64,000 nt of DNA, from the IMG/VR virus record IMGVR_UViG_3300037067_014608, one strand, 5' to 3'. The translations under genes and the position numbers were made by a program. This document shows positions 28,845 through 64,000 of the stretch, one piece after another (positions within the stretch are counted from its first letter, which is position 1; every line of letters starts with the position of its first letter). This DNA is from a virus (taxonomy: Duplodnaviria; Caudoviricetes). The notes under the pieces were generated by a model that saw only the letters and a program-made list of their open reading frames with translations, did not search any database and was not told where the DNA came from.

Positions 28845-31547
28845 TCATATCGGCACCACGTTGGTTTGATAAATAATATTCCTGTGTTCATCCATCACGG
28901 TGAATGTTAGGTTATCGGTTGAACTATACGTATCATTGTAGTAGATTCCGAGTAGTATCGTTCCATTTGATTCGTTTCTGTATGTGTAGAAGTCTGTCGA
29001 GATTCCTGCTGTTGCATATACTGGTGTCTGTGTAAAGAACGTCTCAATATACTCAGTTTCAGACGGGTAATAATACCGCGTCTCGTTAATGCCATACGAT
29101 GGTGCATTATACCAAATCGAATATTTTGATGTTGGAACCATTACATACGTTATTGACCCGTCAGTACCGGTAATCCCGGACATGGTTGTATTTAGAACCG
29201 GTGTCGTTTCTAAATTAATACCGAATAAGATCGAGACCCAACTTACTGGTATTGATGATGAAATTGCATTCAGTGTAGTGTTCATTCCAGTAATTGCTTC
29301 CCCATTATAATTCTGGCAGACAAACCGTACAACTTTGGTTGTTACATATTGTGTTTGCGATGATGTTGATGTGGATGAAAGGTGCATTGTGACATTCTGG
29401 TTATGATCCATTATGTAATTCTCTGATAAACTTCCATATCCGGTTGCAGATGCACTAATCGCTACTACGCCATACGAATAATATCCAATATAGGTTCCGT
29501 TTGTTGTCGTTGTTGTATTACCCGTTGAATCGATTACTTTAACAACATTTATTGTGTCCCCGCTTTGATCGAGGAATTGGATTATTAAACGATATTGTGG
29601 AGTCAGTGATAGATCCTGTCGGTTTACACCGACAATGGTATTGATTAAATTGGATTTTGTTACTGTATCAGTCCCATATGGGTTAACCACCGTTAATGAT
29701 ACTGTATACAATCCTGATGAGTTATAAACATAAACCGGGTTCTGCTCGTTCGAATAATTACCATCTCCAAACGACCAGTTCCATGCCGTCGGATAATTCA
29801 TAGTTGTATCGTTAAATTGAACGGCTAATGGTGCTGCTCCTGCGGTTACATTAGAGGTATATGACGCTACGGGTGTCTGGCCTACAATATTGATATATCC
29901 CGATCTTGATAACGTATTATTCCCGTAAGTATTTGTTACTGTTAACGTTACTTTATATGACCCGAGTGCGTTATAAGTATAGGATGGGTTCTGTAAGGGA
30001 GATAACATTCCATCCCCAAACGACCAGTTCCACGACGTTGGGGAATTTGTTGACAGGTCTGTGAATTGTACGGTAGTTCCAATATCACCCGTTGTGGGTA
30101 TCGCTGAAAAGTTTGCTACAGGTAATGGCGAAGTTATTGTAATATACCCCACTTTTGTTGATGTGTTTGATCCATAGGCGTTTTCTACGGTCAGTATAAT
30201 TGTGTGAGAGCCGATTACATTGTATGTGTGGTTTGGATTCTGATCGTTTGAATAGTTACCGTCGCCGAATGTCCAGTTCCATGCTGTGGGGATATTTGTG
30301 GATGTGTCGGTGAACTGAACCAACGTTCCACTGTTTCCTGATCTTGGAGTTCCCGTAAAATTAGCAACGGGCGTTGGAGCTGCTGTCACCGTAATATAAC
30401 TTGTCTTTGTTACTGTATTTGAACCACCGGCATTTGTTGCGTTCAAGGTCACCGTATAAACACCGGCGTTCGTGTATGCACATATAGGATTTTGCTGGGT
30501 ACTCGTCCCTCCATCTCCAAATGCCCATTCCCATGACGAAGGTGTGTTTGTTGATGTGTCGGTAAATTGAACGTATAATGTGGCATACCCTGAAGTTGTA
30601 TTCGAAGTAAAATTCGCTACCGGTGCATTCATTGATACGTTAATAAATGTTACTTGCGTCGAGATATTCGAACCTCCTTCGTTGGTAGCATTTAATGTAA
30701 TTAAGAAATTACCTACTCCAAACGTTTGGGACGGATGTTGGGATGTACTAAATGAAACAGGGGTGTTATTTCCAGTCACGTTTGTAAAATTCCATATCCA
30801 CCCTGTTGGCGTATTCGTTGACGTGTCTGTGAATGTTGTCAAAACCGACATGTACCCGGTTGTTGGATCGGCTGTAAATGACGATACTGGCACGGGTTGC
30901 GCATAATCAAATGAAACGTATCCGCTTCCACCAGTACCTCCATTACCACCGATTGCTATTCCATCACCGGGTTCTGCTCCGGCAGCTCCCCCACCCCCAC
31001 CGGCCCCATATCCACCGGTTCCACCTGCTGCACCAAGGGTCGTTGCACCTGTACCACCAGTACCCACTGTGCTGCTTCCACCATTCGTACCATAATACGC
31101 AATTACTGTGCTCCCACCGTTTCCCCCTGATCCTGTATATCCAAATGCCGATGATGCTGTTCCGGAATAACCGCTTGATCCAAACCCGTGATTGCCAGTA
31201 CCCCCGGTTCCACCAATACCCGCCGTTATTTCATACGTAAATCCGCTGGATACTGCGACGGCACTTGCTGCTGATGTTGACCCTGCAAAACCACCGGCCC
31301 CGGCATTTTGGTTCTCGTCGCCGCCCCCACCGCCTCCGCCACCACCGGCTCCAACAACCACTAAATTGGTTATTTGAGATACACCTGTTGGAATTAAAAT
31401 CGAATCGTTTGAGGTGTAAATACACGTTACCGTATCCCCGGATTGTGTGCACCCTGCACTAACAATTCCGACAATGGATAAACTAACTAACAATAAGAGT
31501 AACCACTTATTCGCTGAAATACAATTACGATTACTCTTACCTTTCAA
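28845..31547 (-). CDS. 900-aa secreted protein: Gly-rich domain, ~5 PKD, shared C-terminal domain
   Basis: TTG start after GGTGAGG; ends IIYQTNVVPI; no TM anchor. Confidence 0.88.
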   Translation of the reverse strand: MKGKSNRNCISANKWLLLLLVSLSIVGIVSAGCTQSGDTVTCIYTSNDSILIPTGVSQITNLVVVGAGGGGGGGGGDENQNAGAGGFAGSTSAASAVAVSSGFTYEITAGIGGTGGTGNHGFGSSGYSGTASSAFGYTGSGGNGGSTVIAYYGTNGGSSTVGTGGTGATTLGAAGGTGGYGAGGGGGAAGAEPGDGIAIGGNGGTGGSGYVSFDYAQPVPVSSFTADPTTGYMSVLTTFTDTSTNTPTGWIWNFTNVTGNNTPVSFSTSQHPSQTFGVGNFLITLNATNEGGSNISTQVTFINVSMNAPVANFTSNTTSGYATLYVQFTDTSTNTPSSWEWAFGDGGTSTQQNPICAYTNAGVYTVTLNATNAGGSNTVTKTSYITVTAAPTPVANFTGTPRSGNSGTLVQFTDTSTNIPTAWNWTFGDGNYSNDQNPNHTYNVIGSHTIILTVENAYGSNTSTKVGYITITSPLPVANFSAIPTTGDIGTTVQFTDLSTNSPTSWNWSFGDGMLSPLQNPSYTYNALGSYKVTLTVTNTYGNNTLSRSGYINIVGQTPVASYTSNVTAGAAPLAVQFNDTTMNYPTAWNWSFGDGNYSNEQNPVYVYNSSGLYTVSLTVVNPYGTDTVTKSNLINTIVGVNRQDLSLTPQYRLIIQFLDQSGDTINVVKVIDSTGNTTTTTNGTYIGYYSYGVVAISASATGYGSLSENYIMDHNQNVTMHLSSTSTSSQTQYVTTKVVRFVCQNYNGEAITGMNTTLNAISSSIPVSWVSILFGINLETTPVLNTTMSGITGTDGSITYVMVPTSKYSIWYNAPSYGINETRYYYPSETEYIETFFTQTPVYATAGISTDFYTYRNESNGTILLGIYYNDTYSSTDNLTFTVMDEHRNIIYQTNVVPI

Positions 31548-31549
31548 TC

Positions 31550-31720
31550 TCCTCACCTGAAATATTGTATGACGTGTTACTGGCACAACACATCTAATAT
31601 ATATACATTTACATTAGTCTTCTCTACCCTCTTTATTTATAAACCTTTCACCGGCGTGTTTTTTATTGATTTGTTATGTTTCTGGCAGAGTACGTCGGTG
31701 GGTGTACCAAAGATTAATAT
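31550..31720 (-). repeat. Promoter/5'-UTR cassette copy B
   Basis: Identical to A/D from RBS to BRE; different ~35-nt spacer. Confidence 0.92.
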
Positions 31721-31728
31721 GCGTTGTG

Positions 31729-34700
31729 TTATGTTGGAGTCACCTTTGTCTGGTAGATTATTGTCTTGTTCTTATCCATTACGGTGAACGTCAGGTTGTC
31801 GGTTGAACTGTAGGTGTCGTTGTATAGTGCTCCGAGTGTGATTGTTCCGTTTGTTTGGTCTCTGTAGGTATAGAAATCAGTTGCAATACCCTGTTTTCCG
31901 TAGGTTACTGGTTGCGTGAAGAACGTCTCAACGTATTCGTTTTCCTGTGGGTAGTAATAACGGGTCTCGTTAATTCCCATCTCAACATCTTCAAAGTGAA
32001 TTGCATATTGGGATGTTGGAACCATTACGTATACGATTGAACCGTCTGTACCTGTTGATCCATTCATTGTTGTGTTCAGTAGGGGAGTTGTTCCTAAATT
32101 AATTCCGAATAAGGTGGTGACCCAACTTAATGGGATTGTTGAACCGACTGCGTATACTGTTGTGTTCATTCCTGCAATCGCTTCCCCATTGTAATTCTGG
32201 CAGACGAACCGCACGGTCTTTGTAACGACAAGTTGCGTTGCATTTGTGGATGTTGACGGGGACAGAGTAATATTTACAAGCCTGTTATAATCCATCGTAT
32301 ACGTTTGCGTGATACTGCCATATCCAGATGCGGAGGTTGTGATTGTAACCATTCCGTATGGATAATACCCAACAAAGGTTCCGTTTGAGGTTACTGTCGT
32401 ATTTCCTGCTGAGTCAAATACTGTTACGATTGGGATTACCCTGCCGCTTGGATCTGTAAACTTAGCAATTAACCTGAATTGTGGCGTTAAATTGAGATCC
32501 TGTCTGTTCTGGCCTACAACCGTTGTAATATAATTTATTCTTGTTGATGTGTTACTACCGTATGCATTTGTTGCCGTTAATGAGACTGTGAAGATTCCTG
32601 TCTTATTATACCAGTGAACTGGGCTCTGCTCGTTTGAATAATTGCCATCCCCAAACGACCAGTTCCAACTCGTCGGTAAATTATACGATTGATCGGTAAA
32701 CAGGATCGCAAATGGCGGTGCACCAACCGTAGTGTTTGCCACGAATTGTGCTATCGGGACTGGTGCTATGATATTGATATATCCTACTTTCGTGTTACTA
32801 TTACTTCCATAGGAATTTGTGGCATTCAATGATATTGTGAATAACCCTGCTACATTATACGTGTGATTTGGATTCTGTTCGTTTGAATAGTTACCGTCAC
32901 CAAATGACCAGTTCCATGAAGTCGGTGATACCGTTGACAGATCATTGAACTGGACGTTTGTTCCTAAATATCCGCTTCTTGGAGTCCCATTAAAGTTTGT
33001 ACCCGGTACTGGATATGATCCAACGTTGATGTAATTTGCTTTTATTGTCTTGTTCGAACCGTACTCGTTCGATACCGTTAACATTACCGTGTAATTACCC
33101 ATTGATGTATATATGTTAACCGGGTTTTGGGCTGTTGAATAGGTTCCATCTCCGAATGACCAGTTATAATTCGTTGGACTTCCTGTTGATGCATCGGTAA
33201 ATTCAACTGCCAGAGGTGGATATCCCGCCGTCTGGTTTGCACTAAATGCCGCCACGGGTAATTTTACACTCACTGTGATATAATTTGTTCTTGTTGCAGT
33301 ACTACTCCCGTATACGTTTGTCGCGATTAATCTTACTGTAAATACTCCAGCAACATTGTATGTGTGGTTTGGATTCTGATCGTTTGAATAGTTACCGTCG
33401 CCGAATGACCAGTTCCATACCGTTGGGCTTCCTGTCGATAAGTCCGTGAACTGGACGGTCATTCCGGTGTCACCTGATGTCGGTGAACCTACGAAGTTTG
33501 CGCTTGGTAGTGGCGTTGAACTGACGGTTATGTATCCATTCTTGATCGTGATGTTTGAACCGCCAGCGTTGTAAACGGTCTGTTTTACATTGTATACTCC
33601 GACGTTTGTATAGTTGTGGGATGGGTTCTGTAAGGTGCTCGTGTATCCATCTCCAAACTCCCAATACCAAGATGTTGCATTATGTGATGAATCTATAAAC
33701 TGAACTGATAATGGAGGATATCCCACTAAAGGTGTTGCACTAAATCCTCCAACCGGAGGTTGGACTGTCATATTGATGTAATCTACTTTTGTTGTTGTAA
33801 CACTACCGTATTGGTTTGTGGTGTTCAAACTGATACTGTAAACTCCTGCTACTATATATGTATGGTTCGGGTTCTGTAATTCTGAATAATTTCCATCTCC
33901 GAACGACCAGTTCCATGAAGTTGGTGTATTATTTGTGAGATCCGTGAATTGAACCATCGTATATATTGTTCCGTTTCTCGGAGTTGCTGAGAACTCTGCG
34001 TATGGGATTGGTGCCGGGTTTACACGGATATAATCTGTCTTGGTTTTTATACTATACCCATGTGAATTCGCTGCATCTAATGTTACGGTGAAGTTGCCAA
34101 TTGCGTTGTAAACGTGTACGGGGTTCTGCTCGTTCGAGTAGTTGCCATCTCCGAACGACCAGTTCCATTGAACTGGTGTGTTTGTGGACGTATCTGTGAA
34201 CTTCACGGCAAGCGCCTGATAACCTGACGTTACGTTACTGGTAAAATTTGCAACTGGCCCCGGTAATGACAATACGTTGATGTAATTAACATAGGTTGTT
34301 GCATTAAATCCACTGGCGTTTGTTACATTTAACGTAACGTTATAATACCCCGGGCCAACGAATGTGTAAACCGGGTTCTGTAATGTACTTACGTTATATG
34401 CACCGTTGCCAAACGTCCAATTCCATGTTGTTATATCCGTTACACTCGTATCCGTGAACTGGACGGTTAACATCTCATACCCGGTAGTTATATTTGCGGT
34501 GAAACTTGGTTTTGGTTTCACGATGATTGTGATGTAATCTGTTATCGTGGTTGAATTGGTGGCGTATGGATTGTTTGCATATTCTGTCACGGTGTAAGTT
34601 CCAGCAACAGTATATGTGTGAGTTCCGTTCTGGGTTGTACCGTTCTGCCATGTCCCGTCTCCGAACGACCAGTTCCATGACGTTGCGTTGTCTTTTGGAG

Positions 34701-50589: not shown

Positions 50590-50593
50590 CGCA

Positions 50594-50773
50594 TCCCCAC
50601 CTAAATATTTATAACCTACACTGCTGGATCAGTATAGATCTATTATATATACATTTACATTACATTAGTCTTGTACAACGTCCTTATTAATAAACCTTTC
50701 ACCGAAATGTATTTTATTAAATTATAAAAAAAGATTTGGTAGTACGACGATGGGTATACCAAAGGTTAATATC
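50594..50773 (-). repeat. Promoter/5'-UTR cassette copy C (diverged)
   Basis: Conserved BRE-TATA, AAGACTAATG, upstream motif; compensatory hairpin. Confidence 0.85.
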
Positions 50774-51355
50774 TTAGAACCAATTCAGACTTTCGTGTGC
50801 TAGTTCATAAATTGCATATACTATCATTATCCCTGAAAAGAATGACATACCTAAAAACAATAAATCCATCCCATAGTAATTATATGAGATGGTTCTCCCA
50901 AACATACACAAAATAATATTCAATGCACCGGTGAGAATGACTTTTATTGGATCGTCACCTAAAAATAATAAAAAGATACTTAAAAGTATCGATATAATAA
51001 ATAAAATCTGGACTATTGACGCTGGCGGAAGTGTTTTTGTACTTATTATCTTGTAATCTGATGTGTTGCTAGCATTTACTAACTGGATTGTATGTTGTGA
51101 ATTCGAACTTAATTTTGAGAGATAATAATAACCAATTGTATTATTTGTTGCTCTTGTTGTACCGCTTAACTCATCCGTTATTAATGCACCATCTACATAG
51201 ATTTGGGCGGTGACTGAACTATTCCAACTCACTTTAATCCATGATTCTCCTACATCTGATTTTATGTTTGTGAAGGTTGATGCTTGGACGGGGATCACTA
51301 GAACTGCAAGTATTATAATAAATAGTAGTAGTATATTAAGCGGTTTCATTATCAT
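50774..51355 (-). CDS. Membrane protein: signal peptide, FN3-like domain, 3 TM; paralog of C-terminus of 23192-28660
   Basis: D.G..[WY]I..SW...[IV]DG...NN..GYY....L..NS.HT..LV shared. Confidence 0.8.
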   Translation of the reverse strand: MIMKPLNILLLFIIILAVLVIPVQASTFTNIKSDVGESWIKVSWNSSVTAQIYVDGALITDELSGTTRATNNTIGYYYLSKLSSNSQHTIQLVNASNTSDYKIISTKTLPPASIVQILFIISILLSIFLLFLGDDPIKVILTGALNIILCMFGRTISYNYYGMDLLFLGMSFFSGIMIVYAIYELAHESLNWF

Positions 51356-51360
51356 TTCAA

Positions 51361-51735
51361 TTACCACCAGTTCCGCTTCTTTTTAAAGAAGAAATAGAAC
51401 ATGTAGAGTAGCATTAGACCTACAATTACATATAATGCTCCTTCCCAAAGTCTCATCACCATTGTCTGGTTTTTTACTCCTTCCTCTTTAAACGCTTCTA
51501 AATTTGGATTTTCTCCCTCTATAAAAACATACGTACAATTCAGATTGCTTGTGATATTCATGAAGGTACAATTAATATCTCCGGGAATTGAACTATTTGA
51601 TGTATTTTCCCATCTTGATAAACTTTCTGGTGATTCTATTGTATCATTCCCAAAAAATGATAGGGATAACAATAAAAGTAATGCTATTCCTACTAACGCC
51701 ACAAATAATGTGAATGGATTTGCTCGTATCGGCAT
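51361..51735 (-). CDS. Two-TM membrane protein with sequon-rich loop
   Basis: Hydrophobic ends, NxS/T sites, KKKR tail. Confidence 0.75.
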   Translation of the reverse strand: MPIRANPFTLFVALVGIALLLLLSLSFFGNDTIESPESLSRWENTSNSSIPGDINCTFMNITSNLNCTYVFIEGENPNLEAFKEEGVKNQTMVMRLWEGALYVIVGLMLLYMFYFFFKKKRNWW

Positions 51736-51738
51736 TTT

Positions 51739-52440
51739 TTATCTCCTCCGTATTGTCCACCAATAAAATATTCCCATAAATCCCAATACCAGTAATATTT
51801 CTGCAAACATTACGAACTCTGGTGGGAACAATGCCCAAATCGTTCCGCTGCAAAGCATAACTACCAGTACCGCCATTGCGATTGAACGTTGTTTTGTAAC
51901 CATGTTTAAGATACTCATTCCAATTATTATACCATAGAACACTGTTGCGCCGATTGTTATAGTATACACTATCCAAATATCGGTAGTAATGATCTTTACC
52001 GGGTCGTTTTGGAGATCTTCAAGGAATACATCTGTGTATACTGCATATGTTGTTGTCACATGCGGCTGTTGAACCGGCGTGGTAAATGTTTCATTATCCC
52101 CATATTCAATTATTGATCCATCTGAACCCACGGCTTGAACTACATACGTTTGATTGGGAATTAACGGGATACCACAAATTGTATGGTTATAGTTTGCTGA
52201 TGTTGTGACGTTCGGGGTTTTAAATGATTTATACCCCCCTATCGAGAAGGGATCGTTTGTATGATCGATTCCATATTCAAACCATCCGATTCCGTCGTTT
52301 GTAGTTCCCGAGAATTTTACACAGAACGTACTGGAATTCACCGTTACAGGATTGGTAATTACCGCTGCCTGTGTTGGGATAATTAAGATTGTTAATACCA
52401 ATAATAATGGCATTAACTTTCTTACGTCTTTATTCTCCAT
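51739..52440 (-). CDS. Membrane protein: signal peptide, FN3/Ig-like domain, ~3 TM (start revised to MENKD)
   Basis: TGATG overlap with upstream stop; WFEYG ... Y.VQA motif. Confidence 0.75.
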   Translation of the reverse strand: MENKDVRKLMPLLLVLTILIIPTQAAVITNPVTVNSSTFCVKFSGTTNDGIGWFEYGIDHTNDPFSIGGYKSFKTPNVTTSANYNHTICGIPLIPNQTYVVQAVGSDGSIIEYGDNETFTTPVQQPHVTTTYAVYTDVFLEDLQNDPVKIITTDIWIVYTITIGATVFYGIIIGMSILNMVTKQRSIAMAVLVVMLCSGTIWALFPPEFVMFAEILLVLGFMGIFYWWTIRRR

Positions 52441-52880
52441 CACTGGATCATACCTCCAGACCGGCCAGCCTTCCACTGTGCAAGACTCCAGACAAGGGCG
52501 TAATAGACTATCGCTTGCAACACCAGTGCCAGTGGTAATGGGCAATGGAAGAATACAATTAATGTCGGTAAAACCGTAACAAACGTCGATATTACCGTTA
52601 TTATCATAAGGGTTCCAGATACGAACGTCGCTACACCCAACGTTACCGCATCCATAGTACCCATATTCTTTTGATCTTCTATCATTTCACCGGTCTGATC
52701 GTTATAATCGCCAGTCACATATCCTTTTGTTGAATTTATTGTTGCGTTTGCTGGATTTGACGATACAAACTGTCCATTAAGTCCAAGATAATCTTCCGGG
52801 AATAACCCAATGCTTGCTACGAATATCTGTGATACTTGTGATCCCATGATCAAAAGTAAAATAAGTTCCCATCCTCTCAT
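52440..52880 (-). CDS. Membrane protein
   Basis: Hydrophobic N-term and two C-terminal TMs ending Q...GR. Confidence 0.75.
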   Translation of the reverse strand: MRGWELILLLIMGSQVSQIFVASIGLFPEDYLGLNGQFVSSNPANATINSTKGYVTGDYNDQTGEMIEDQKNMGTMDAVTLGVATFVSGTLMIITVISTFVTVLPTLIVFFHCPLPLALVLQAIVYYALVWSLAQWKAGRSGGMIQ

Positions 52881-53021
52881 TGGGAGTGCTCCGTTTTTAA
52901 TATTATAGTATACTTTACATTCGTTATCCTTATATACACCAATACCCTCACCTTTATAATTGATAAGATTGCTACAATATATATAATTGATGGTCTATTG
53001 AGATTATTATGGGTTTAAAAA

Positions 53022-53495
53022 TTATGAGAGCGATTCTTCTTCAGCATACCTCATATACATAATTATTGAATACGCAACTGCGGTACTGATTAACATTACA
53101 CTGATCTGTAACCAGCCTGCTACCAGCCAGAAGATCGCTCCCCAAATCGCTACGAATACTATATTAAACCGTAGTCTCAATCTTCCACTGATATATGCAT
53201 ATATACAAATTATACTACATGCAAACCCATTGTAGATAAACCCAGCTACCGGATCTCCATTTGCTGCACCCATCGGGTTCCAGTGCCATTGGCTGTCGTC
53301 GATATGAATGTAATTTGTTTCATTTATTGGATTGGCAAATAACGTTGAGTTGCCACTAACTGTCCAATAATAGTACGCTCCTTGTTCGTAAGGTACTGTA
53401 TATGAAAGATTTGCTGTCGATGCTGCTGCTCCTGTTACCATTAGCATTAAGCTGCTTATCAATACCCCCATTAAAATAAGTCTTTTTGTTATCAT
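53022..53495 (-). CDS. Putative shared membrane anchor: signal peptide, short beta-rich ectodomain, ~3 TM
   Basis: GAAA|STANLSYTVPYEQGAYYYWTVSG; ATGA overlap with 2629-aa gene. Confidence 0.8.
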   Translation of the reverse strand: MITKRLILMGVLISSLMLMVTGAAASTANLSYTVPYEQGAYYYWTVSGNSTLFANPINETNYIHIDDSQWHWNPMGAANGDPVAGFIYNGFACSIICIYAYISGRLRLRFNIVFVAIWGAIFWLVAGWLQISVMLISTAVAYSIIMYMRYAEEESLS

Positions 53496-56400
53496 GATGG
53501 TGTCACCTGTGTCTGATAGATGATTGTCTTGTTCCGATCCATTATAGTGAATGTCAGGTTATCGGTTGAACTGTAGGTGTCGTTGTATAGTGCTCCGAGC
53601 ACGATTGTTCCATTTGTTTCGTCTCTGTATGTGTAGAAGTCTGTCGTGATTCCTGTTGATGCATATGTCGGTGTCTGCGTCCAGAACGTCTCGATGTATT
53701 CAGACTCTTGCGGATAATAATATCGTGTTTCATTAATTCCGAGCGGTATATATTGATAGTGAACAGCATATTGTCCTGTGCTCAACATAATAAAGGTTAC
53801 TCCTCCATCCACACCTGTGGTTCCATTCATTGTTGAATTCAATACTGGCGTTGTTCCTAAATCTATTCCGAATAGTGCCGGAACCCAACTTAGTGGTACG
53901 GTTGAAGTTACTGCTATTGCAGATGCGTTCATCCCAACAATTGGTTCTCCGTTGTAATTCTGGCAGACAAACCGTACTGTCTTTGTAGATACGACTAACG
54001 TTTGACCGGATAATGCTGGCGATAGTTCAAGCGTATCATTAATGTTCATATCGATACTGTATGTGTCTGTCCGTTCTGCAAACCCTGATGCGGACGATGT
54101 AAATTCGACTGTTCCGAACGGATAATATCCGATGAACGTTCCGTTTGAGGTGGTTGTTGAATTCCCTAATGAATCTGTTACACCAACCGTAGGTATGAGG
54201 TTCCCACTTAAATCGGTATACATAAACATAACTTTATATAATGGATCTAATGTAATGTCTAAATCGTTGTACCCACTTACCATTGATGAAATAATATAAT
54301 TATTCATCGTAACGGTTGCGTTCCCATATTCGTTTGATGCTGTTAATGATATCGTATATATTCCGGTTCCGTTATACCAGTGCTTTGGATTTTGTTCGGT
54401 CGAGTAGTTGCCATCCCCGAAGCTCCAGTTCCAGATCGTAGGACTGTTTCCAGACGTATCGGTAAACTGGACGGAAAAGGGCGGTGTGCCACTTGTTACG
54501 TTACTTGTGAAGGAAGGAACCGGGATTGGGATTGAAGTTACATTAATATAATCATCATAGACGGTGAAGTTCGAACCTCCAGCATTTGTTGCTGTGAGGG
54601 CTACTGAAAAATTGCCACCGGTCGTATAGATATGGATTGGGTTTTGTTCGGTTGAGTTATATCCATCGCCAAAGTTCCAGAACCAGATTATTGGTGTGTT
54701 CCCGCTTGTATCCGTGAACTGCACTGCTAACGGTGTATCTCCTGAAGTTATATTTGCAGTAAATGAGGTTACGGGTGCCGGGGGTTTACTTACATATATA
54801 TAATTCGGTCTCGAAAGGGTATTGGTTCCTCCAGCGTTTGAAACTGTTAAATTAACCGTGTAACTTCCTCCATCCGGATACGTGTAAATTATATCCTCAT
54901 CATTACTATAATTGCCATCGCCGAACGACCAGTTCCATGCCGTCGGATATGATCCCCATTGCATTGAGGTATCGGTAAATTTAACAGTTAACGGTGCATC
55001 CCCTGTTGTTGGTGTTGCGGTAAAGTTTGCTACAGGGGGTGACGTTGGGTTTACCCAAATATAGTTCGTTGTTGTTGTTTTATTAAACCCGCCTGAATTT
55101 GAGGCGTTGAGTGATACGGTATAATTGCCTTGTGTGAGATATTTATGGGTTGGGTTTTGTTGATTTGAATAGTACCCATCACCGAACGACCAGTTCCATG
55201 CAATCGGAACGTTGCCAGAAGTGTCTGTGAATAGCACAGATAATGGCGCTTCTCCAAACGTTGTATTACTTGTGAAACTCGTTATTGGTTTTTGCACTGT
55301 GGTTGTTATATATCCTACTTTCGTCATGGCATTTGTGTTGTGTTCATTCGATACAGTCAGACTTACAGTAAATGTACCTGTTAAATTATATATATACATT
55401 GGGTTCTGATCGGTTGAATAGTTGCCATCACCGAACGACCAGTTCCAGTATAATGGATCTCCTGTTGAAGTATCTGTGAATTGAACGGCAAATGGTATTG
55501 ACCCGGTTGTTGCGTTTGCCGTAAAGTTTGCATAGGGTACTGATATATACCTGAATATTACCGCTCCTGAATATCCATATCCCGATCTTCCTGTTGCCCA
55601 TCCACCACCACCGCCACCAGCACCGTATTGTGTAGCGTTTGTTGCTGGTGTGTCACTATACCCACCTCTTCCACCGCCACCAAGTCCACCATAACTTTGC
55701 GCAGCACCTCCCGTGATACCACCGCCACCGCCACCTGCGTAATAGGTATAATTGCCGTTGATGTTTATTGGAAGACCAATCCCTCCGTTCCCTGCTACGG
55801 TGCCATTACCATTTGCACCAAGTCCGCCAGCACCGCCGCCACCACCTGATCCTACGTATTGAAGAACCGACCCCACACCACCATCATATCCTTGGCCGGT
55901 CGTGCCGTGTCCGCCACTTCCTTGTGAACCTCCCCCACCAGAACCCCCCTCATATCCGTATTTAAGGGCGTTATACGCTCCACCGCCCCCACCACCAATC
56001 GTCAAGATCTCTGCGGTTCCATTATTAATTGAAGAGTTTGAACCGTTTACACCCATTGTTGCAGATCCCGTTATACCCAATCCTCCACTACCTACCATAA
56101 TATTATAAGTAACTCCGGGAATAATCGAGTAATAATATCCGGATAACAATCCGCCAGCACCTCCGCCGCCACCGCCAGAACCTCCGCCAGAACCCCCGCC
56201 GGCTATTACCAAATAATCAATAAATATCGCGCCTTCCGGTGCTGTCCACGTATAGGTTCCCGGTGTTGTGAAGTTGACGACCGTGAAGTTAGATTGTAAG
56301 TAAATTGATTGTGTTTTTGAGACGTGGTTTGTTCCACTCGCATTTACGATATAATGAGTTATTGTATAATTTCCAAAGGTTGGGTATTTATACGTCACGT

Positions 56401-59400
56401 TTCTATTGGTTGACCCGTTACTCCAGTTCCCGTCCCCAAAATCCCACCTGTATTCTGTAATATCCATCCATTCGCTCGTATCATTGAAGTTCCAAATGTT
56501 TGGAGTTAAGTTTATAACTTCAGACATTGTGAAATTTGCTTCCGGAGGTGGTGAGACGTTGATAAAATACGTCTCTTGTGTGAAGTTTGTTCCGGCAATG
56601 TTATTTACACCTAACACAATCGACCAATTTCCTGTACCGAAGATCTGCGTTACATTCCTAGAACTACTGAACGTAACGGGCGTGTTATTTCCGGTAACAT
56701 TCGTGAAATTCCACTGCCACGCGGTTGGAATATTCTGGCTTGTATCATTAAACAGGACTGCCATTGGTTCAAACCCGATTGTAACATTTGATATAAAGGA
56801 TGCAATCGGGACTTGTATTGGGTATACATTGATGTAATCCACTCTTGCTGAAGACCCCGTTCCGCCAGCATTAGTTACATTTAATGTAACTGTATAATTA
56901 CCAACAACATAATAAGTAACAACAGGGTTTTGTTCTTCTGAAAATTCCCCGTTTCCAAATGACCAATTCCATGCTGTTAATTTTAATCCGATTGTTGTAT
57001 CATTAAACTGGACTGCCATCGGAACGATCCCTACGGTTATATTTGCTATGAAACTTGGTTCCGGAATCGGAACCTGACTTGTGATTATATACCCTGTTTT
57101 TGTCGTTGTGCTTGATGCATAGATACTATTTGCAATTTCTGTTACATCATACGTTCCCGGTACTTCGTATACGTGACTTACCGTTTGGTTTGTTCCATTA
57201 CTCCAATTTCCGTCTCCAAACGACCAGTTCCACCACGTTGCATTATCGTTTGTTTTTGTTACCGTGAATGTTACAGGGAATGGCACATATCCGGTTGTCT
57301 GGTTCGCCGTGAAATCCGAATATGTTTGGTTATACACGGTAATATAATTTGTTTTCGTTGAGGTGTTTGAACCACCAGCATTTATTGCCGTCATTGTTAC
57401 GGTATAATTACCACCAGAATAGAACGTGTGAACGGGGTTCTGTTCTGATACTAGGTTCCCATCTCCAAATAACCAATACCAGTTATAGATCCCTAATCCT
57501 GTTGATTGATCGGTAAACTCTACTGATAATGGATATACTCCCGACGTAATATTACTAGTAAACTTAGCGACCGGTGCTGCATAGGGCGTTGCCGAAATGT
57601 AATTTGTTATATTCGTCCAGTTCGTCCAGTGTCCATTACTTGTCGAGTACCTGACAGTATACGTTCCGATTATTTCATAAGTGTGGGTTGGGTTCTGATC
57701 TGTTGATGTGTTACCATCTCCAAACTCCCAATAGTATGATGTTGCGTTTTGACCATACCCGGAGAATGCGATTGATACCGGTGTTATACCGGTTGTTGCA
57801 TTGCTTGTGAAACTTGACGTTGTTTTATTATAAACTGTTATGTAATCAGTGATTGTTGTTGTATTTGATGTATATGCATTACTTGCTTTTTCCGATACTG
57901 TATACGATCCGCCTGTCCAATATGTATGCGTTATGTTCTGAGTTGTACTATTAACCCAGTTCCCATCGCCAAATGACCAGTTCCAATAGGTGGCGTTATC
58001 ATCAGGAGTGGTTACGTTAAATACAACCGTTAAGGGGAATATACCTTCTGTGACGTTCGCCGTAAATCCTGTAACGGTTGTATTCCTTACCTCGATATAT
58101 TTTGGCATTATTGATAGGTTATATCCCCCATGATCGTTCTGGACTACCCGCATTATGGTATAATTTCCACCAGATGCAAAGATATAACTAATATTTTGCG
58201 TGCTACCGTTCGTCCAGTTTAATCCCCCGTTAAATGACCAATTCCAGATAGTGCCATTGTCATTGACAACAGTTGTGTTGAAATCAACCGTGAGTGGGAT
58301 CATACCATATCTTGGCGTACCTGTAAATCCAGATGTGGTTTGATTGTATATTGTTATGTAATCAACTTTTGTCGATGTGTTTGAACCACCAAGGTTGGTT
58401 ACTGTCTGCGATACTGTGTAAGTTCCACCTGAATAGAATGTATGTGCCGGGTTCTGGGTCTGGTTCGTTCCGCCGTCTCCAAACGCCCATGTCCATGTCT
58501 GTGGGTTTATTGTATTGGATTCATCAACAAATGATACTGTCAATGGGAAAAGTCCACTTAATGGTGAACCACTAAAATTAGCTACTGGTGCCGGAGGTTC
58601 TATTGCCGTAATATAATCTGTTAATACTGTCGTATTTGAATAGTATGGATTATTTGCTATTTCCGTGACTGAATATGTGCCTGCGGTTGTGTAAACGTGC
58701 GTTGCGTTTTGTGTGGTTGAGTTAAACCATCCGCCGTCCCCATACCCCCAACTCCAACTTGTTGCATTATCCTTTGGGTTAGTTACACTAAATGAGACTA
58801 CGAGTGGAGTATATCCCGTCGTTGGGACTCCATTAAATCCAGATAGGGTCTGATTATATACCGTGATATAATTTGGTTTTGTTGTTACGTTCGAGGCATA
58901 TTGGTTCGTCGCCCATTCTGATACGGTGTATGATCCTCCGTTCGCATACGTATGAACCGGGTTTTTCTCACCAGAATCCGACGTATTAAACCAAACCCCA
59001 TCACCAAACGACCAGTTCCAATAGGATGCGTTATCGTTTGATGATGTCAATGTAAACTGGACTGCTAATGGGAATACGCCTGTTGTCTGATTTGCTGTAA
59101 ACCCTGTAAATGTCGAGTTATATACGGTAATATAATCTGGAATTGTTGTGGTATTCGTCCAATATGCATTACCCGCGTTTTGCGTTACTGTGAATGTGCC
59201 ACCAGTTGCATAAACATGCGTTGGACTTTGGGTAGATCCGTTGAGGTACGTCCCATCACCAAAACTCCAGTTCCACCATGTTGCATTATCATTGAACTTT
59301 GATGGAGAGAATTTTACGGCTAATGAGAATACTCCGCTTGTTTTGTTTGCAGAAAATCCCGAAACCGTTTTATTATATACGGTAATGTAATTTAGTTTCG

Positions 59401-61381
59401 TGGTCTGGTTTGATCCACCAAGGTTTGATGCCGTTAATGTGACTGTATATGAACCTCCGGATGCATAGGAATGTATCGGGTTCTGGAGTGCACTTGATTG
59501 CCCATCACCAAATGACCAGACCCACGTTGTTGGTGCGTTTGACGTGGTGTCGGTAAACTGAACGTCCAGCGGATATAGTCCTGTTGTCTGGTTCGCTGTA
59601 AAGTCCGCTTGTGGAATGGGTAATGTTACATTAATCCATGTTGGTTGTGTCGAGGTGCTTGTCCCTGCAATGTTGCTTGCAGTCAAGGTTATTTTATAAT
59701 TTCCATATCCAAAGATTTGTGTTGGGTTCTTAGAATTACTAAAGGTTACCGGAGTATTATTCCCTGTAACATTGGTGAAATTCCATATCCATCCTGTTGG
59801 CGTATTGGTTGTTGTATCTGTAAATGCAACTGCAAGCGGCATAACCCCGGACGTTTTATTTACAGTAAAACTCGCAACCGGAGAGAATATTGTAGTATAT
59901 GTTAAATAAACGAATCCTTTTGATCCTGCCCCACCACTATCCGTCACAAGGTGACCGTATAACTCCGGGCCACCTCCACCGCCACCAGCACCATAATTAC
60001 TTCCTCCCGCAGCACCAGCACCTGCATATCCTGCTGTACCTGACGATGCTGATGTCGATGACATTCCAGAGACGATATTACCATTACTTCCGGTTGCTGC
60101 ATGATCACGGATAATCTGCCACGATGTCCACCCCTGCTTCCAAACACCGGTTACGTTTCCTCCGTTTCCACCAGCAGCAGAGTATCCAAATGCGGTTGTT
60201 GATACTCCATTGCTACCTTTGAGTTGTATTGTCTGGTTATCTTCTGTACAAATATCATACGGGTAATTATTACCCATAAGTGATGTGAGTACACCTCCCC
60301 CAGTACCAGATCCTGCTGTACCTACAACAATTGAATATCCTGTTCCGGGAGTCACTGATATGTTTGTTTGAGGGTTATACTCAGATGCAAATCCTCCGGC
60401 TCCTTGCCCCGATGGGCCTATATTTGTGTTTGTAAGCGTACAGGCATAAAGTCCTGTTTGGGTATACATTGAGATGGAGGTGCCATATCCGCCACCAGCA
60501 CCACCGCCACCTCCAACAAGTATTGCACTTGCATTATGCACGTTTGCCGGGGCTGTCCACGTTCCGCTACCATAAAATATAACGGTTGGGTCTGGCCCGT
60601 CGAACGTTGGATCTCCATATGGCGCGTATGAAAAAGCGTTCGCCAGATTTACCAGCAATGCGTTTGCCGGTGACTCGACTTCAACCGTAACATTCTCGTA
60701 TCTCGATGACACTATTGATAAATTATCCATTGTTGATTGGTTGTATAGTTTCGTTCCGTTGTGAGGGAAATATACATCCGGAGCCAACTGATCTAATGAG
60801 ACGGTTGTATTGACCAATACTTTTTTTGGTTCTTGTATGGTAAATGGTGCATCATATACTCTCACCGGGTTATGGACTTCAACGGCGTTCCCATTTCTCG
60901 TTACAGTTAAATTAAATTTGTTTGTTTTTGTTTCCGGGTCATATGTTTGACTGTAAACAGTAATATTAATTAAGTCGCCGTTATTTAAGGTAATTGACGA
61001 TTTGCCACGAAGATCAACATACTTGTTAATGTATTGAGCTACCGCATCTGCTTTTTCAGTTTCATTTAGTCCTTGTAATGACTCGTTAAGTGAATTTTTA
61101 GGTATGTCGTATTTTTTATTAGAATACGTATCGTTTGTGATAAATCCCTGATCAATTACCAGTGTTTTTTCCGCTCGGGTTACTTTGTCAGATTCACTAA
61201 TTAGTTTACCGGTCTCTATTCTAGGTGTTTCCTGACTTGGTTTTGTAATATACTGATCTTCACTAGGACTAGGATTTAAATACACAAAATAGTAAATTAC
61301 CGCACTGATAACAGCGACGACTATTAACCCTAAAATACATAATAGTGCAATACGTCTTCTATTATCTGTAGAACTTGTCAT
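53492..61381 (-). CDS. 2629-aa surface protein: N-terminal signal-anchor, unique domain, 2 Gly-rich domains, ~19 PKD, shared C-terminal domain
   Basis: GGTGAGG RBS; ends IIYQTQVTPS. Confidence 0.9.
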   Translation of the reverse strand: MTSSTDNRRRIALLCILGLIVVAVISAVIYYFVYLNPSPSEDQYITKPSQETPRIETGKLISESDKVTRAEKTLVIDQGFITNDTYSNKKYDIPKNSLNESLQGLNETEKADAVAQYINKYVDLRGKSSITLNNGDLINITVYSQTYDPETKTNKFNLTVTRNGNAVEVHNPVRVYDAPFTIQEPKKVLVNTTVSLDQLAPDVYFPHNGTKLYNQSTMDNLSIVSSRYENVTVEVESPANALLVNLANAFSYAPYGDPTFDGPDPTVIFYGSGTWTAPANVHNASAILVGGGGGAGGGYGTSISMYTQTGLYACTLTNTNIGPSGQGAGGFASEYNPQTNISVTPGTGYSIVVGTAGSGTGGGVLTSLMGNNYPYDICTEDNQTIQLKGSNGVSTTAFGYSAAGGNGGNVTGVWKQGWTSWQIIRDHAATGSNGNIVSGMSSTSASSGTAGYAGAGAAGGSNYGAGGGGGGPELYGHLVTDSGGAGSKGFVYLTYTTIFSPVASFTVNKTSGVMPLAVAFTDTTTNTPTGWIWNFTNVTGNNTPVTFSNSKNPTQIFGYGNYKITLTASNIAGTSTSTQPTWINVTLPIPQADFTANQTTGLYPLDVQFTDTTSNAPTTWVWSFGDGQSSALQNPIHSYASGGSYTVTLTASNLGGSNQTTKLNYITVYNKTVSGFSANKTSGVFSLAVKFSPSKFNDNATWWNWSFGDGTYLNGSTQSPTHVYATGGTFTVTQNAGNAYWTNTTTIPDYITVYNSTFTGFTANQTTGVFPLAVQFTLTSSNDNASYWNWSFGDGVWFNTSDSGEKNPVHTYANGGSYTVSEWATNQYASNVTTKPNYITVYNQTLSGFNGVPTTGYTPLVVSFSVTNPKDNATSWSWGYGDGGWFNSTTQNATHVYTTAGTYSVTEIANNPYYSNTTVLTDYITAIEPPAPVANFSGSPLSGLFPLTVSFVDESNTINPQTWTWAFGDGGTNQTQNPAHTFYSGGTYTVSQTVTNLGGSNTSTKVDYITIYNQTTSGFTGTPRYGMIPLTVDFNTTVVNDNGTIWNWSFNGGLNWTNGSTQNISYIFASGGNYTIMRVVQNDHGGYNLSIMPKYIEVRNTTVTGFTANVTEGIFPLTVVFNVTTPDDNATYWNWSFGDGNWVNSTTQNITHTYWTGGSYTVSEKASNAYTSNTTTITDYITVYNKTTSSFTSNATTGITPVSIAFSGYGQNATSYYWEFGDGNTSTDQNPTHTYEIIGTYTVRYSTSNGHWTNWTNITNYISATPYAAPVAKFTSNITSGVYPLSVEFTDQSTGLGIYNWYWLFGDGNLVSEQNPVHTFYSGGNYTVTMTAINAGGSNTSTKTNYITVYNQTYSDFTANQTTGYVPFPVTFTVTKTNDNATWWNWSFGDGNWSNGTNQTVSHVYEVPGTYDVTEIANSIYASSTTTKTGYIITSQVPIPEPSFIANITVGIVPMAVQFNDTTIGLKLTAWNWSFGNGEFSEEQNPVVTYYVVGNYTVTLNVTNAGGTGSSARVDYINVYPIQVPIASFISNVTIGFEPMAVLFNDTSQNIPTAWQWNFTNVTGNNTPVTFSSSRNVTQIFGTGNWSIVLGVNNIAGTNFTQETYFINVSPPPEANFTMSEVINLTPNIWNFNDTSEWMDITEYRWDFGDGNWSNGSTNRNVTYKYPTFGNYTITHYIVNASGTNHVSKTQSIYLQSNFTVVNFTTPGTYTWTAPEGAIFIDYLVIAGGGSGGGSGGGGGGAGGLLSGYYYSIIPGVTYNIMVGSGGLGITGSATMGVNGSNSSINNGTAEILTIGGGGGGAYNALKYGYEGGSGGGGSQGSGGHGTTGQGYDGGVGSVLQYVGSGGGGGAGGLGANGNGTVAGNGGIGLPININGNYTYYAGGGGGGITGGAAQSYGGLGGGGRGGYSDTPATNATQYGAGGGGGGWATGRSGYGYSGAVIFRYISVPYANFTANATTGSIPFAVQFTDTSTGDPLYWNWSFGDGNYSTDQNPMYIYNLTGTFTVSLTVSNEHNTNAMTKVGYITTTVQKPITSFTSNTTFGEAPLSVLFTDTSGNVPIAWNWSFGDGYYSNQQNPTHKYLTQGNYTVSLNASNSGGFNKTTTTNYIWVNPTSPPVANFTATPTTGDAPLTVKFTDTSMQWGSYPTAWNWSFGDGNYSNDEDIIYTYPDGGSYTVNLTVSNAGGTNTLSRPNYIYVSKPPAPVTSFTANITSGDTPLAVQFTDTSGNTPIIWFWNFGDGYNSTEQNPIHIYTTGGNFSVALTATNAGGSNFTVYDDYINVTSIPIPVPSFTSNVTSGTPPFSVQFTDTSGNSPTIWNWSFGDGNYSTEQNPKHWYNGTGIYTISLTASNEYGNATVTMNNYIISSMVSGYNDLDITLDPLYKVMFMYTDLSGNLIPTVGVTDSLGNSTTTSNGTFIGYYPFGTVEFTSSASGFAERTDTYSIDMNINDTLELSPALSGQTLVVSTKTVRFVCQNYNGEPIVGMNASAIAVTSTVPLSWVPALFGIDLGTTPVLNSTMNGTTGVDGGVTFIMLSTGQYAVHYQYIPLGINETRYYYPQESEYIETFWTQTPTYASTGITTDFYTYRDETNGTIVLGALYNDTYSSTDNLTFTIMDRNKTIIYQTQVTPS

Positions 61382-61558
61382 TCCTCACCTGAAATATTGT
61401 ATGACGTGTTACTGGCACAACACATCTAATATATATACATTTACATTAGTCTTCTCTACCCTCTTTATTTATAAACCTTTCACCGAGAGATAATTTTGGA
61501 AATAATCCAGAAATATCAGGTATTACGTCGATAGGTGTACCAAAGGTTAATATCTTAG
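61382..61558 (-). repeat. Promoter/5'-UTR cassette copy D
   Basis: Near-identical to copy A 33 kb away. Confidence 0.92.
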
Positions 61559-61561
61559 TAA

Positions 61562-63685
61562 TCATGCTGGTGTCACCCACGTCTGGTAGATTATTGTTCT
61601 GTTTCCATTCATTACCGTGAATGTCAGGTTATCCGTTGAACCGAACGTATCGTTATATACCACCCCGAGTGTGATTGTTCCATTTGATTCGTTTTTGTAT
61701 GTGTAGAAATCTGTGATAATTCCTGATGATGCATACGTCGGTGCCTGTGTCCAGAATGTCTCGATATACTCTGTTTCTTGCGGATAGTAATATCGGGTCT
61801 CGTTAATGCCGTAGGCTGGTGCATTATACCATACCCGATATTTCGAGGTCGGCAACATCACAAAGGTTATGCCACCATCATGACCGGTTGTACCTGACAT
61901 TGTTGTGTTTGTTAATGCGGTTGATCCTAGATCTATACCGAATAATGCCGGAACCCAACTATCCGGCATTGTCGATGACACTGCTACTGCCGATACGTTC
62001 ATTCCAACAATCGGATTTCCGTTGTAATTCTGGCAGACAAACCTTACTGTATTTGTATTAACCATCTGGATCTGAGATTGTGCTGGCGCTTTCATGAGCT
62101 GGACTACAATTGAACGGTTGCTATCTAAAATATATGAGTTTGATTGGCTGACATATCCACTTGCTGATATGTAAAATGCAGCAACTCCCGTTGGGTAATA
62201 TCCAGTAAACGTTCCATTTGTCGTCGTTGTTGAATTGCCCGTATGATCCAACACTGTAACTGCCGAAATATTATTTCCGTTTGTATCTTGGAACGAGAGG
62301 ACTATCTGGAATAGCGGGGTTAAGTATAGGTTCGCTTTGTTTCTTCCATTTGAATATGCACCGATATAATTGTATTTTGTTGTTGTGTTACTCCCATACG
62401 AATTCGTTGCGGTAAGCGCGACATTATACGTCCCGATAGCCCCGTATATATTTACCGGGTTCTGATCTGTTGATGTGTTTCCATCTCCAAAATCCCAACT
62501 CCAACTTGTCGGGGAATTTGTTGAAGTGTCGGTAAACTTTACTGCAAATGACGGGTTGCCTTGCGTAATATTGCTCGTAAAGTTTGCTACCGGTACGGGT
62601 GCCCCAATTGCAACGTAGTCCGGTATTGATGACGTGTTGCTTCCATACGAGTTTGTTGCGGTAAAGGTTACGCGGAACGATCCATTTACATTATACGTAT
62701 GTGTTGGATTCTGTGCATTCGAATAATTACCATCACCGAAACTCCAGTTCCAACTTGTTGGATTTAATGTCGAAAGATCGGTGAAGGTTACTGTTGTTCC
62801 TACATACCCGCTTCGTGGTGTTGCAGAGAAGTTTGCAACTGGCACGGGTGAGACTATAGTAACATAATACGGGCGGGTCATTACACTATACCCATATGAA
62901 TTTGATGCGTTTAATGCAACAGAGAATGTGCCGTTCGTTGAGTATACGTGATCCGGGTTTTGTAGTTCTGAATAACTGCCGTCTCCGAACGACCAGTTCC
63001 ATGCCGTTGGGGAGTTTGTCGATGTATCGGTAAATTGCGTATCTGTTCCAACGTATCCCAATAATGGTGTTCCTGTGAAATTCGTTCCCGGAACCGGTGC
63101 GTCATAAACCCTGATATAATCTACAATGGATGTATTATTAAATCCTAATACATTTGTTACATTTAGTGTGACGGTATAATTCATTAAAAGGAAGTAAGTA
63201 TGGATCGGGTTTTGTACGGTGCTATTCGAACCATCTCCGAAATCCCATAATCTGCCTGTAGGGTTTCCTGTCGAGATGTCATAGAACTGGACGGTAAATG
63301 GCCTATACCCTGACGTTTGGTTTGCTCCGAAAATGGATACTGGCTCTACGGCAGTCATGTTAACAAATTGGGTGTATTTGCTGTACCCCTCTGAATTTGA
63401 TGCGTTTAATTCTATTAACCAGTTCCCAAACCCAAATATCCCTGCTGTGTTCTGTAAAGTACTGAACTGTATCGGAGTGTTATTCCCGGTTACGTTTGTA
63501 AATGTCCACAGCCATGCGGTGGGGACGTATAATGAAGTGTCTGTAAACACTGCAATTACGGTTGTTTCGTTATATTCTGTTGATACACTGAATGATGATA
63601 TTGGTGCTGATGCCGCACTTACAGGCATAACTATCGCTAACAAACACACAAAAATAAAGACATATGTATATTTTTTCGGTTGCAT
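61562..63685 (-). CDS. 707-aa secreted protein: ~5 PKD, shared C-terminal domain
   Basis: Signal peptide VSA|A; ends IIYQTWVTPA. Confidence 0.88.
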   Translation of the reverse strand: MQPKKYTYVFIFVCLLAIVMPVSAASAPISSFSVSTEYNETTVIAVFTDTSLYVPTAWLWTFTNVTGNNTPIQFSTLQNTAGIFGFGNWLIELNASNSEGYSKYTQFVNMTAVEPVSIFGANQTSGYRPFTVQFYDISTGNPTGRLWDFGDGSNSTVQNPIHTYFLLMNYTVTLNVTNVLGFNNTSIVDYIRVYDAPVPGTNFTGTPLLGYVGTDTQFTDTSTNSPTAWNWSFGDGSYSELQNPDHVYSTNGTFSVALNASNSYGYSVMTRPYYVTIVSPVPVANFSATPRSGYVGTTVTFTDLSTLNPTSWNWSFGDGNYSNAQNPTHTYNVNGSFRVTFTATNSYGSNTSSIPDYVAIGAPVPVANFTSNITQGNPSFAVKFTDTSTNSPTSWSWDFGDGNTSTDQNPVNIYGAIGTYNVALTATNSYGSNTTTKYNYIGAYSNGRNKANLYLTPLFQIVLSFQDTNGNNISAVTVLDHTGNSTTTTNGTFTGYYPTGVAAFYISASGYVSQSNSYILDSNRSIVVQLMKAPAQSQIQMVNTNTVRFVCQNYNGNPIVGMNVSAVAVSSTMPDSWVPALFGIDLGSTALTNTTMSGTTGHDGGITFVMLPTSKYRVWYNAPAYGINETRYYYPQETEYIETFWTQAPTYASSGIITDFYTYKNESNGTITLGVVYNDTFGSTDNLTFTVMNGNRTIIYQTWVTPA

Positions 63686-63688
63686 CGT

Positions 63689-64000
63689 TCACGTACCACT
63701 CATTCTCGCTTGAACCATATCTGGTTGGAACCCTGTTGATGTCCCCGTAATATTATACCACATATTATTTGTGAGGTAATCAAACCGATAATACCCTGCA
63801 ATGTTTGTCGTTTTTGATGCGGTATAATTTGTTGACGTGTTAACTATTGTTACCGTTGCATCACCTAATGGTGTGGTATATAATTTGTTGTACACTATCC
63901 CGTTAAGACAGATCCCTAAACATACCGAGTCCGATGGAATCATTGTAATATTATAAGGTATTATTTTAGCGGTCTCCGGAGTGAGGTTTGTATATGACGT
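63689..64000 (-). CDS. Partial gene (5' end beyond window); C-terminal carboxypeptidase-regulatory-like beta domain
   Basis: Frame open to 64000; G.V......PL..ATV......T...GYY.F..L....Y.I.....GF. Confidence 0.65.
   Translation of the reverse strand, partial: TSYTNLTPETAKIIPYNITMIPSDSVCLGICLNGIVYNKLYTTPLGDATVTIVNTSTNYTASKTTNIAGYYRFDYLTNNMWYNITGTSTGFQPDMVQARMSGT

Follow-up and report, generated by a model that had tools for sequence, protein, structure and literature searches.

A split Ig-like domain as a probable plug and socket between four giant fibres and one membrane anchor of an uncultured mobile element

The window analysed here is a whole stretch of 64,000 nucleotides from the IMG/VR virus record IMGVR_UViG_3300037067_014608 (Duplodnaviria; Caudoviricetes). 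Between positions 28,845 and 63,685 it holds four genes for fibre-like proteins of 707, 2629, 6286 and 913 amino acids (aa), named fibres 1 to 4, and one gene for a small membrane protein, P0003, named the anchor (Table 1). The fibres stop in the middle of an Ig-like domain whose remaining strands are found at the start of the mature anchor, and homology together with modelling makes it practically certain that this domain was once continuous and has been split. The explanation of fibres and anchor as one split module, which works as plug and socket, is probable, and completion of the fibre domain by anchor strands is the most likely mechanism of anchoring, being favoured with modest confidence by sequences and models.

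The C-terminal region of about 260 aa, called the tail, is homologous in all four fibres, with 56-64% identity to the first and 74% mean column identity in the alignment. All four tails carry VRFVCQNYNG, GINETRYYYP and STDNLTFT unchanged and stop at one shared position of the alignment, following V-x-P-x; about the last 50 aa of each fibre make up the half Ig-like domain. The sole hydrophobic segment of each fibre is N-terminal, and neither a C-terminal transmembrane (TM) segment nor a PGF-type tail (PGF-CTERM/archaeosortase) is found in the four fibres by hydropathy scan and in the translations. An earlier reading of the DNA letters alone, the sequence-only reading, had described homologous tails with a common stop and no such C-terminal anchor, and the translations, the alignment and the hydropathy scan bear this out. 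A profile search in the six frames of the window and of 10 kb upstream of it finds exactly four tails and one anchor. In the scanned fibres, multiple PKD/PKD_4 domains lie above the Pfam gathering score (PKD_4 E 2e-55 to 1e-103). The Pfam scan of fibre 2 covered its last 402 aa (PKD), its Gly-rich stretches being read from the translation, as were the Gly-rich, PKD-like and lectin-like/Laminin_G-like domains of fibre 3. The length of fibre 4 is counted from the first GTG, and its true start may lie slightly downstream (900 aa in the sequence-only reading). The N-terminus of fibre 2 (61290-61381) has a hydrophobic stretch of about 25 residues without an obvious A-x-A cleavage site.

From its N-terminus the anchor has a signal peptide (residues 1-25) and three beta strands (residues about 26-70); a linker follows, which bears the motif W-x-x-N-P...N-G-D, and then come three TM helices that end with R-Y-A-E-E-E. 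Its N-terminus, read from the sequence, is signal-peptide-like, with K/R, a hydrophobic stretch and an AAA end, and the hydropathy scan gives an ectodomain of about 55 aa and hydrophobic segments at about 86-147. The near-invariant G and Y of the family are retained in the anchor strand equivalent to 'GAYYYW'. The anchor start overlaps the TGA of the fibre 2 gene as ATGA, and a Shine-Dalgarno-like GGTGA lies 9 nucleotides upstream of the anchor ATG, in the last codons of the fibre 2 gene. A gene coupled in this way and encoding its own signal peptide, a short ectodomain and TM segments was already part of the sequence-only reading, with which translation and hydropathy scan agree.

Most relatives carry both parts in one open reading frame (ORF). 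A HMMER search of 1.84 billion representatives with the tail of fibre 1 (P0002:445-707; E<=0.001) gives 422 tail homologues, and the family of tail and three-TM anchor is unnamed and has no Pfam model. Beyond the tail end, about 85 of the best 150 of the 422 run on for 118-148 aa, 38 for 27-42 aa and about 10 for 50-69 aa, while an extension of 0 aa is seen only in the window's own proteins and in P0010, a protein of 371 aa on a 2.6-kb contig, which is 49% identical and ends at the same residue as the window fibres. The mature anchor (residues 26-157) matches the full length of the 118-148-aa extensions (phmmer, E down to 7.6e-35). Homologues with both parts in a single ORF, proposed earlier as a check of the split, are thus the majority form, and their C-terminal 130 aa or so are homologous to the mature anchor.

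The two halves are colinear with the fused form, and just about 2 loop residues separate them. The fused proteins read ..S-T-P-N-S-W-N-I-S-Y-P.. across the junction, and the window reads ..V-T-P-S-stop, followed by the 25-residue signal peptide and S-T-A-N-L-S-Y-T-V-P... In a profile built from 18 fused homologues, the four tails match at 2-264 (E 1e-72 to 1e-81) and the anchor at 263-393. The C-terminal elements of the family, which are strands 5-7, the linker, three TMs and the R-[YF]-A-E-x-E-like motif, are present in the window, but on a separate polypeptide, as the fibres stop at profile position ~264 and no window ORF unites tail and anchor. Fused forms, exemplified by P0017, P0011, P0012 and P0013, consist of a head, three domains D1-D2-D3 and three TMs; they lack an internal signal peptide, and their heads share parts with the window fibres (Gly_rich_2, PKD, Kelch). 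A word-index search with the anchor alone matched only itself, and when anchors of 67-275 aa standing by themselves were sought with a profile, only N-terminally truncated pieces of fused proteins came up and no second anchor of the window type. P0035, considered as a second protein ending near the split point, was rejected, because the contig ends with an Illumina adapter (AGATCGGAAGAGC; L012:2400-2513) that creates the stop, an assembly artefact in a public protein set.

The position of the break is given by an AlphaFold2 model of the fused P0017 (residues 293-688), made from an alignment of 18 rows and with a mean predicted local distance difference test score (pLDDT) of 80. The model has a sandwich D1 at 14-87 and a sandwich D2 at 101-201, both CarboxypepD_reg-like, the Ig-like D3, and three helices at 322-393. 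D3 has seven strands, at 217-221, 226-235, 240-249, 254-261, 267-275, 281-290 and 297-304, with block pLDDT of 76-92. The tails end opposite model residue ~263 and the mature anchor starts opposite 266, and therefore the cut lies in the loop 262-266, between strands 4 and 5. When D2 and the half-D3 of the window are modelled alone, with pLDDT averaged in blocks of 10 residues, the D2 blocks are mostly at 82-94 (55-57 in an insertion loop) and are followed by only four strands, at 74-88, so there is no complete domain at the tail end. The claim of the sequence-only reading that the last Ig-like domain is split agrees with both models, the window fibres stopping after strand 4 of 7. A Foldseek search with the whole fused model gives only generic tandem beta-sandwich matches, and a PDB sequence search with the tail gives a single marginal match (6xx1, E 0.003) and shows no sequence relationship to strand-donation pilins.

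The half-domain of the fibres, D3a, is under purifying selection. The four tails have 61-67% nucleotide identity, and their proportion of synonymous differences is 0.53-0.73, near saturation; the paralogues are old, and the common stop position is therefore not an artefact of recent duplication. Amino acid identity among the window paralogues is 45% in D1, 68% in D2 and 73% in D3a, with a ratio of nonsynonymous to synonymous changes (dN/dS) of about 0.2-0.3 in D3a, against 25%, 41% and 31%, respectively, among the fused homologues. D3a is thus the most conserved tail region in the paralogues and falls below D2 in the fused homologues, and this reversed order is as expected if four fibres must fit one partner.

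A complex prediction of tail D2 plus half-D3 with the anchor ectodomain (residues 26-87) gives an ipSAE of 0.55 (runs 0.55/0.62/0.54), and the best of 3 controls gives 0.00. At least 71% of the contacts are common to the runs, and the pLDDT of the partner is at least 59. The mark used for such predictions is passed by 58 of 80 solved complexes and by 2 of 110 mismatched pairs, and at values of 0.60 or less by 7 of the 80 solved complexes and by both passing mismatches; these counts hold roughly here, as the prediction was run on its own alignments, and the halves of a split gene may pass by likeness. For the pairing of tail and anchor supposed in the sequence-only reading, the score is above the controls, and the ipSAE of 0.55 is graded as weak support. 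The prediction can be read as adding a little to a prior that homology, break position, conservation and the relatives had raised before.

Relatives in other loci show independent splits at other points. The loci L005/L006, L008 and L009 are syntenic and carry an archaeal Pilin_N protein, a CarboxypepD_reg protein of ~580 aa, a fibre, a membrane protein of 257-301 aa, small membrane proteins and a large protein. The window has in common with them its CarboxypepD_reg gene (at 63689-64000 and further upstream), the tail of the fibre and the 268-aa protein. At L005:3379-7730, L008:2679-6154 and L009:5001-8929 the fibre ends about 30 residues later than in the window, after strand 6 (a 6+1 break), with '..Y-I-W-x-Y-N-A-T-K..', and the 257-301-aa protein encoded next to it supplies a single strand and the linker, followed by a TM region with homology to the anchor (hhalign probability 91%, E 1e-6). 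This 6+1 anchor gene has a signal peptide in L008 and none in L005 or L009. A TnpB gene (Cas12f1-like_TNB) lies exactly between fibre and anchor gene at L005:5860-6933 and L006:10482-11555, where the anchor is without the L008-type signal peptide, and this gene may be an insertion sequence (IS) insertion. At L013:1456-4763 the fibre includes all of D3 and the linker (a 7+0 break) and stops with ..G-W-G-N-T-C, a case of the Cys-containing end motif ..G-Y-A-T-G-W-G-N-[ET]-C that is conserved in several representatives; the next gene overlaps it and has the TM helices of the anchor at its very start (hhalign 97%, E 7e-11). Apart from the TnpB insert of L005/L006, the anchor gene always adjoins the fibre in the related split loci. 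Read from these sequences, the boundary between the genes has shifted along one colinear module, which is found fused, 7+0, 6+1 and, in the window, 4+3, and a boundary that shifts in this way speaks for parts that work as one complex, joined or not.

The mechanism proposed starts from a single polypeptide of the kind seen in most relatives, with a variable head, D1, D2, a seven-strand D3 and a short linker that leads to three TM helices. The window element has this module cut between strands 4 and 5 of D3: each fibre keeps strands 1-4, and the anchor gene, which has gained a signal peptide, carries strands 5-7, the linker and the TM helices. Fibre and anchor would be exported separately by Sec, and separate export is the sensible reading for the anchor because it has its own signal peptide, which is missing in the fused forms. 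Outside the membrane, the anchor strands would complete the open half-sandwich of the fibre and form a non-covalent tether. One socket probably serves four fibres, because all of them end at the same loop and there is a single anchor gene; it would present interchangeable fibres, differing in length and head, either on the membrane of the host cell or on an envelope that a virus or vesicle takes from it. One socket for several fibres agrees with four fibre genes per anchor gene and with the higher conservation of the half-domain. Re-association, its stability and stoichiometry, the identity of the membrane and the separate export of the anchor are what we infer from these data.

Several points weigh against tethering by strand completion. 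A free-standing anchor of the window type is seen only in this element, and the score of the complex prediction lies in a band where, unless the prior is strong, passes are more often wrong than right. Judging by its sequence, the N-terminus of fibre 2 could be an uncleaved signal-anchor and serve as a membrane anchor itself, and this fibre might then be held at both ends. The 7+0 relatives show that fibre and anchor can be separate with no strand sharing, and another contact or no attachment is possible in this family. Gene conversion could contribute to the higher identity of D3a, because its synonymous divergence is somewhat lower (proportion of synonymous differences 0.53 vs 0.64-0.73).

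One alternative is that the split is real and the anchor is not a tether, the fibres being released, held by their N-terminal segments or self-associated by way of the open half-sandwich (for example as a 4+4 strand-swapped dimer) and the anchor working independently with the neighbouring small membrane proteins. The 7+0 relatives, in which fibre and anchor are separable, the signal-anchor-like N-terminus of fibre 2 and the weak complex prediction speak for it. The alternative is nevertheless unlikely: the anchor keeps three strands with the near-invariant G and Y and has acquired a signal peptide that places them outside, in all four fibres purifying selection has kept just those four strands that the anchor lacks, and an exposed half-sandwich is normally unstable. 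That the fibres bind the anchor or a membrane cluster by other contacts (D2, linker or glycan), with a partly disordered half-domain, is quite improbable, since exact colinearity and a seven-strand domain of high confidence make completion the simplest interface; such contacts would be needed in the 7+0 relatives if these are anchored, and the five small membrane proteins co-encoded here could offer them.

Gene decay, which would make the fibres truncated, pseudogene-like ORFs and the anchor ORF a remnant, draws on the frequency of truncated ORFs in metagenome assemblies and on P0035, whose truncation is an artefact. It is very improbable for proteins of which four paralogues as divergent as these share their stop and have a half-domain dN/dS of about 0.2; the signal peptide of the anchor is new and well formed, its gene has the Shine-Dalgarno-like motif and ATGA coupling, identical sequence comes from several samples, and the intergenic spacers of 136-180 bp are too short for decayed anchor remnants. 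The overlap of stop and start and the colinear order of the halves would also suit recoding, in which a -1 frameshift or read-through at ATGA gives a fibre-anchor fusion from the fibre 2 gene, but the 25-residue signal peptide would then be an internal hydrophobic segment and leave the three strands facing the wrong membrane side, and no anchor lies downstream of the other three fibres, which leaves recoding with hardly any likelihood.

Among known systems, chaperone-usher pili have an incomplete Ig-like fold, which is completed after export by a strand from another polypeptide. The link in those pili is non-covalent and potentially very stable, as the proposed one would be, and what the 6+1 relatives (L005/L008/L009) are missing is precisely the final strand, as in pilins. 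The window fibres differ in lacking three strands (5-7), where pilins lack one (the G strand), and the donor would be a polytopic membrane protein and not the N-terminal extension of a next pilin; nothing here implies a polymer, and the origin of the system is a protein which most relatives have in one piece. No chaperone or usher family is found by Pfam scans of the neighbouring proteins, which covered part of the small ORFs. SpyTag/SpyCatcher is an engineered split CnaB2 domain locked by an isopeptide bond, and shares with the proposed window system a beta-sandwich divided into two reconstituting polypeptides that serve as a modular display plug and socket, whereas the split in the window is natural and no covalent lock is indicated. 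In type V pili of Bacteroidia the terminator is membrane-anchored, its anchor is a lipoprotein in a bacterial outer membrane and assembly depends on proteolytic priming; homology to the window system is not expected. There too a strand-exchange link joins the fibre to a dedicated membrane-tethered anchor subunit (cf. 10.64898/2026.07.16.738973).

In archaea, strand donation without a chaperone is found in Sulfolobus threads (PMC9715654), bundling pili (PMC9245690) and cannulae (10.1101/2024.12.30.630787), and a membrane-anchor subunit, TafF, has been proposed for Tat-fimbriae (tafi; PMC12337348). These archaeal strand-donation filaments are homopolymers of small pilins, in contrast to the single giant multi-domain fibres that would be plugged into an anchor here. 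A further close system is the fused form of the family itself, which is homologous over the whole of tail and anchor and is followed by a gene like that for the 146-aa protein of the window. It is one polypeptide, in contrast to the window's single free anchor and its four fibres, all of them cut at the same loop. A literature search found no paper on this family. The window system is best placed as a variant of strand complementation and not in any of the pilus families, and would be set apart from the known systems by a giant fibre plugged into a polytopic anchor through three donated strands and by its visible descent from a continuous protein.

If the halves re-associate, this would be the first case found in which a membrane anchor donating strands to heterologous giant fibres, a series of break points in one family and a shared socket occur together. 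It would explain how proteins of up to 6286 aa are retained at a surface with no C-terminal anchor, and would give uncultured archaeal elements a way to swap, as modules, their heads for adhesion or receptor binding. The two parts would also be a natural, genetically encoded split-domain pair of about 50 + 45 residues, a candidate tool for display or ligation. The chances are about even for the wider statement that a large, unnamed archaeal family of surface fibres, borne by viruses or mobile genetic elements (MGEs), uses a naturally split Ig-like domain with a moving break point as a non-covalent plug and socket to a polytopic membrane anchor, and that four fibres of 0.7 to 6.3 thousand residues share one socket here, with heads that can be exchanged with no change of anchor.

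Table 1. Fibre genes, anchor gene and genes of neighbouring membrane proteins, with positions in the window
Feature	Position	Strand	Description
Fibre 1, 707 aa	61562-63685	minus	Signal peptide, PKD repeats, tail of the last 263 aa (61562-62353); profile positions 4-263, E 8e-81
Fibre 2, 2629 aa	53492-61381	minus	N-terminal hydrophobic segment, Gly-rich, PKD, tail at 53492-54283; profile positions 2-264, E 1.5e-75
Fibre 3, 6286 aa	31729-50589	minus	Signal peptide, four Gly-rich domains, Laminin_G-like, many PKD, tail at 31729-32520; profile positions 3-264, E 4.3e-72
Fibre 4, 913 aa	28845-31586	minus	Signal peptide, Gly_rich_2, PKD repeats, tail at 28845-29636; profile positions 3-263, E 4.8e-75
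Anchor, 157 aa (P0003)	53022-53495	minus	Profile positions 263-393, E 3e-44; single copy in 74 kb
146-aa membrane protein	52440-52880	minus	Homologous to the C-terminal half of relatives' longer anchors, FHCP-x-PLAL motif (BLASTP E 2e-8 to P0161)
Three more small exported membrane proteins, 268/233, 124 and 197 aa	50774-52545	minus	Between fibres

The element is probably an uncultured archaeal virus or other archaeal mobile element. The label of archaeal MGE is plausible, because Pilin_N (archaeal) genes are present in the syntenic relatives, genes are ordered on a single strand and species genomes give no match. The minus strand carries all the long ORFs of the window, four of which are fibre-like; there are 0 tRNA genes, and a scan of the window for tandem repeats, a hallmark of Borg-like elements, finds essentially none. 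Searches with Pfam and PHROGs give nothing for tail and anchor and almost no matches among ~30 small neighbouring ORFs, and no relatives are found by tblastn of GenBank phage and archaeal-virus records or by pattern scans with close-family alignments of GTDB species genomes and IMG/VR. Neighbours in the ESM Atlas carry mostly viral labels, which serve as a lead only. The window's protein is present on contigs of up to 217 kb, DNA identical to the window has been assembled from at least 3 samples, and the relatives encode Dam, N4/N6 methylases, HNH and TnpB. Fibre 3 has 407 N-x-S/T sequons, a very high density.

From its sequence, the 146-aa protein probably belongs to the same membrane complex as the anchor. 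Its homology to the C-terminal half of the relatives' anchors indicates that the ancestral membrane protein was also divided into two window genes, and a similar gene comes after the fused form in L004. The 268-aa membrane protein has a homologue at the equivalent position in locus L009, and the 268/233-, 124- and 197-aa proteins may take part in the same module of the envelope or membrane. Three paralogous CarboxypepD_reg proteins of 575-601 aa (window 63689-64000 and L010:4597-9940) lie directly upstream of fibre 1; they have similar C-termini and no TM, and are the counterpart of the single pre-fibre gene of ~580 aa in L005/L008/L009. One of the few non-structural genes common to the window element and its relatives encodes a helix-turn-helix protein of 424 aa (window 12400-13674) with a MarR/GerE-like N-terminus, which has a homologue at L006:3205-4278 (25% identity over 295 aa, E 2e-11). 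A PKD protein of 1838 aa ends with a region of ~185 aa (window 23192-23740; FN3-like with three TMs), which is 30% identical to the whole mature 197-aa protein (50774-51367; BLASTP E 3e-22), and the 197-aa type is thus a second type of anchor, which occurs both fused and free-standing within the window element.

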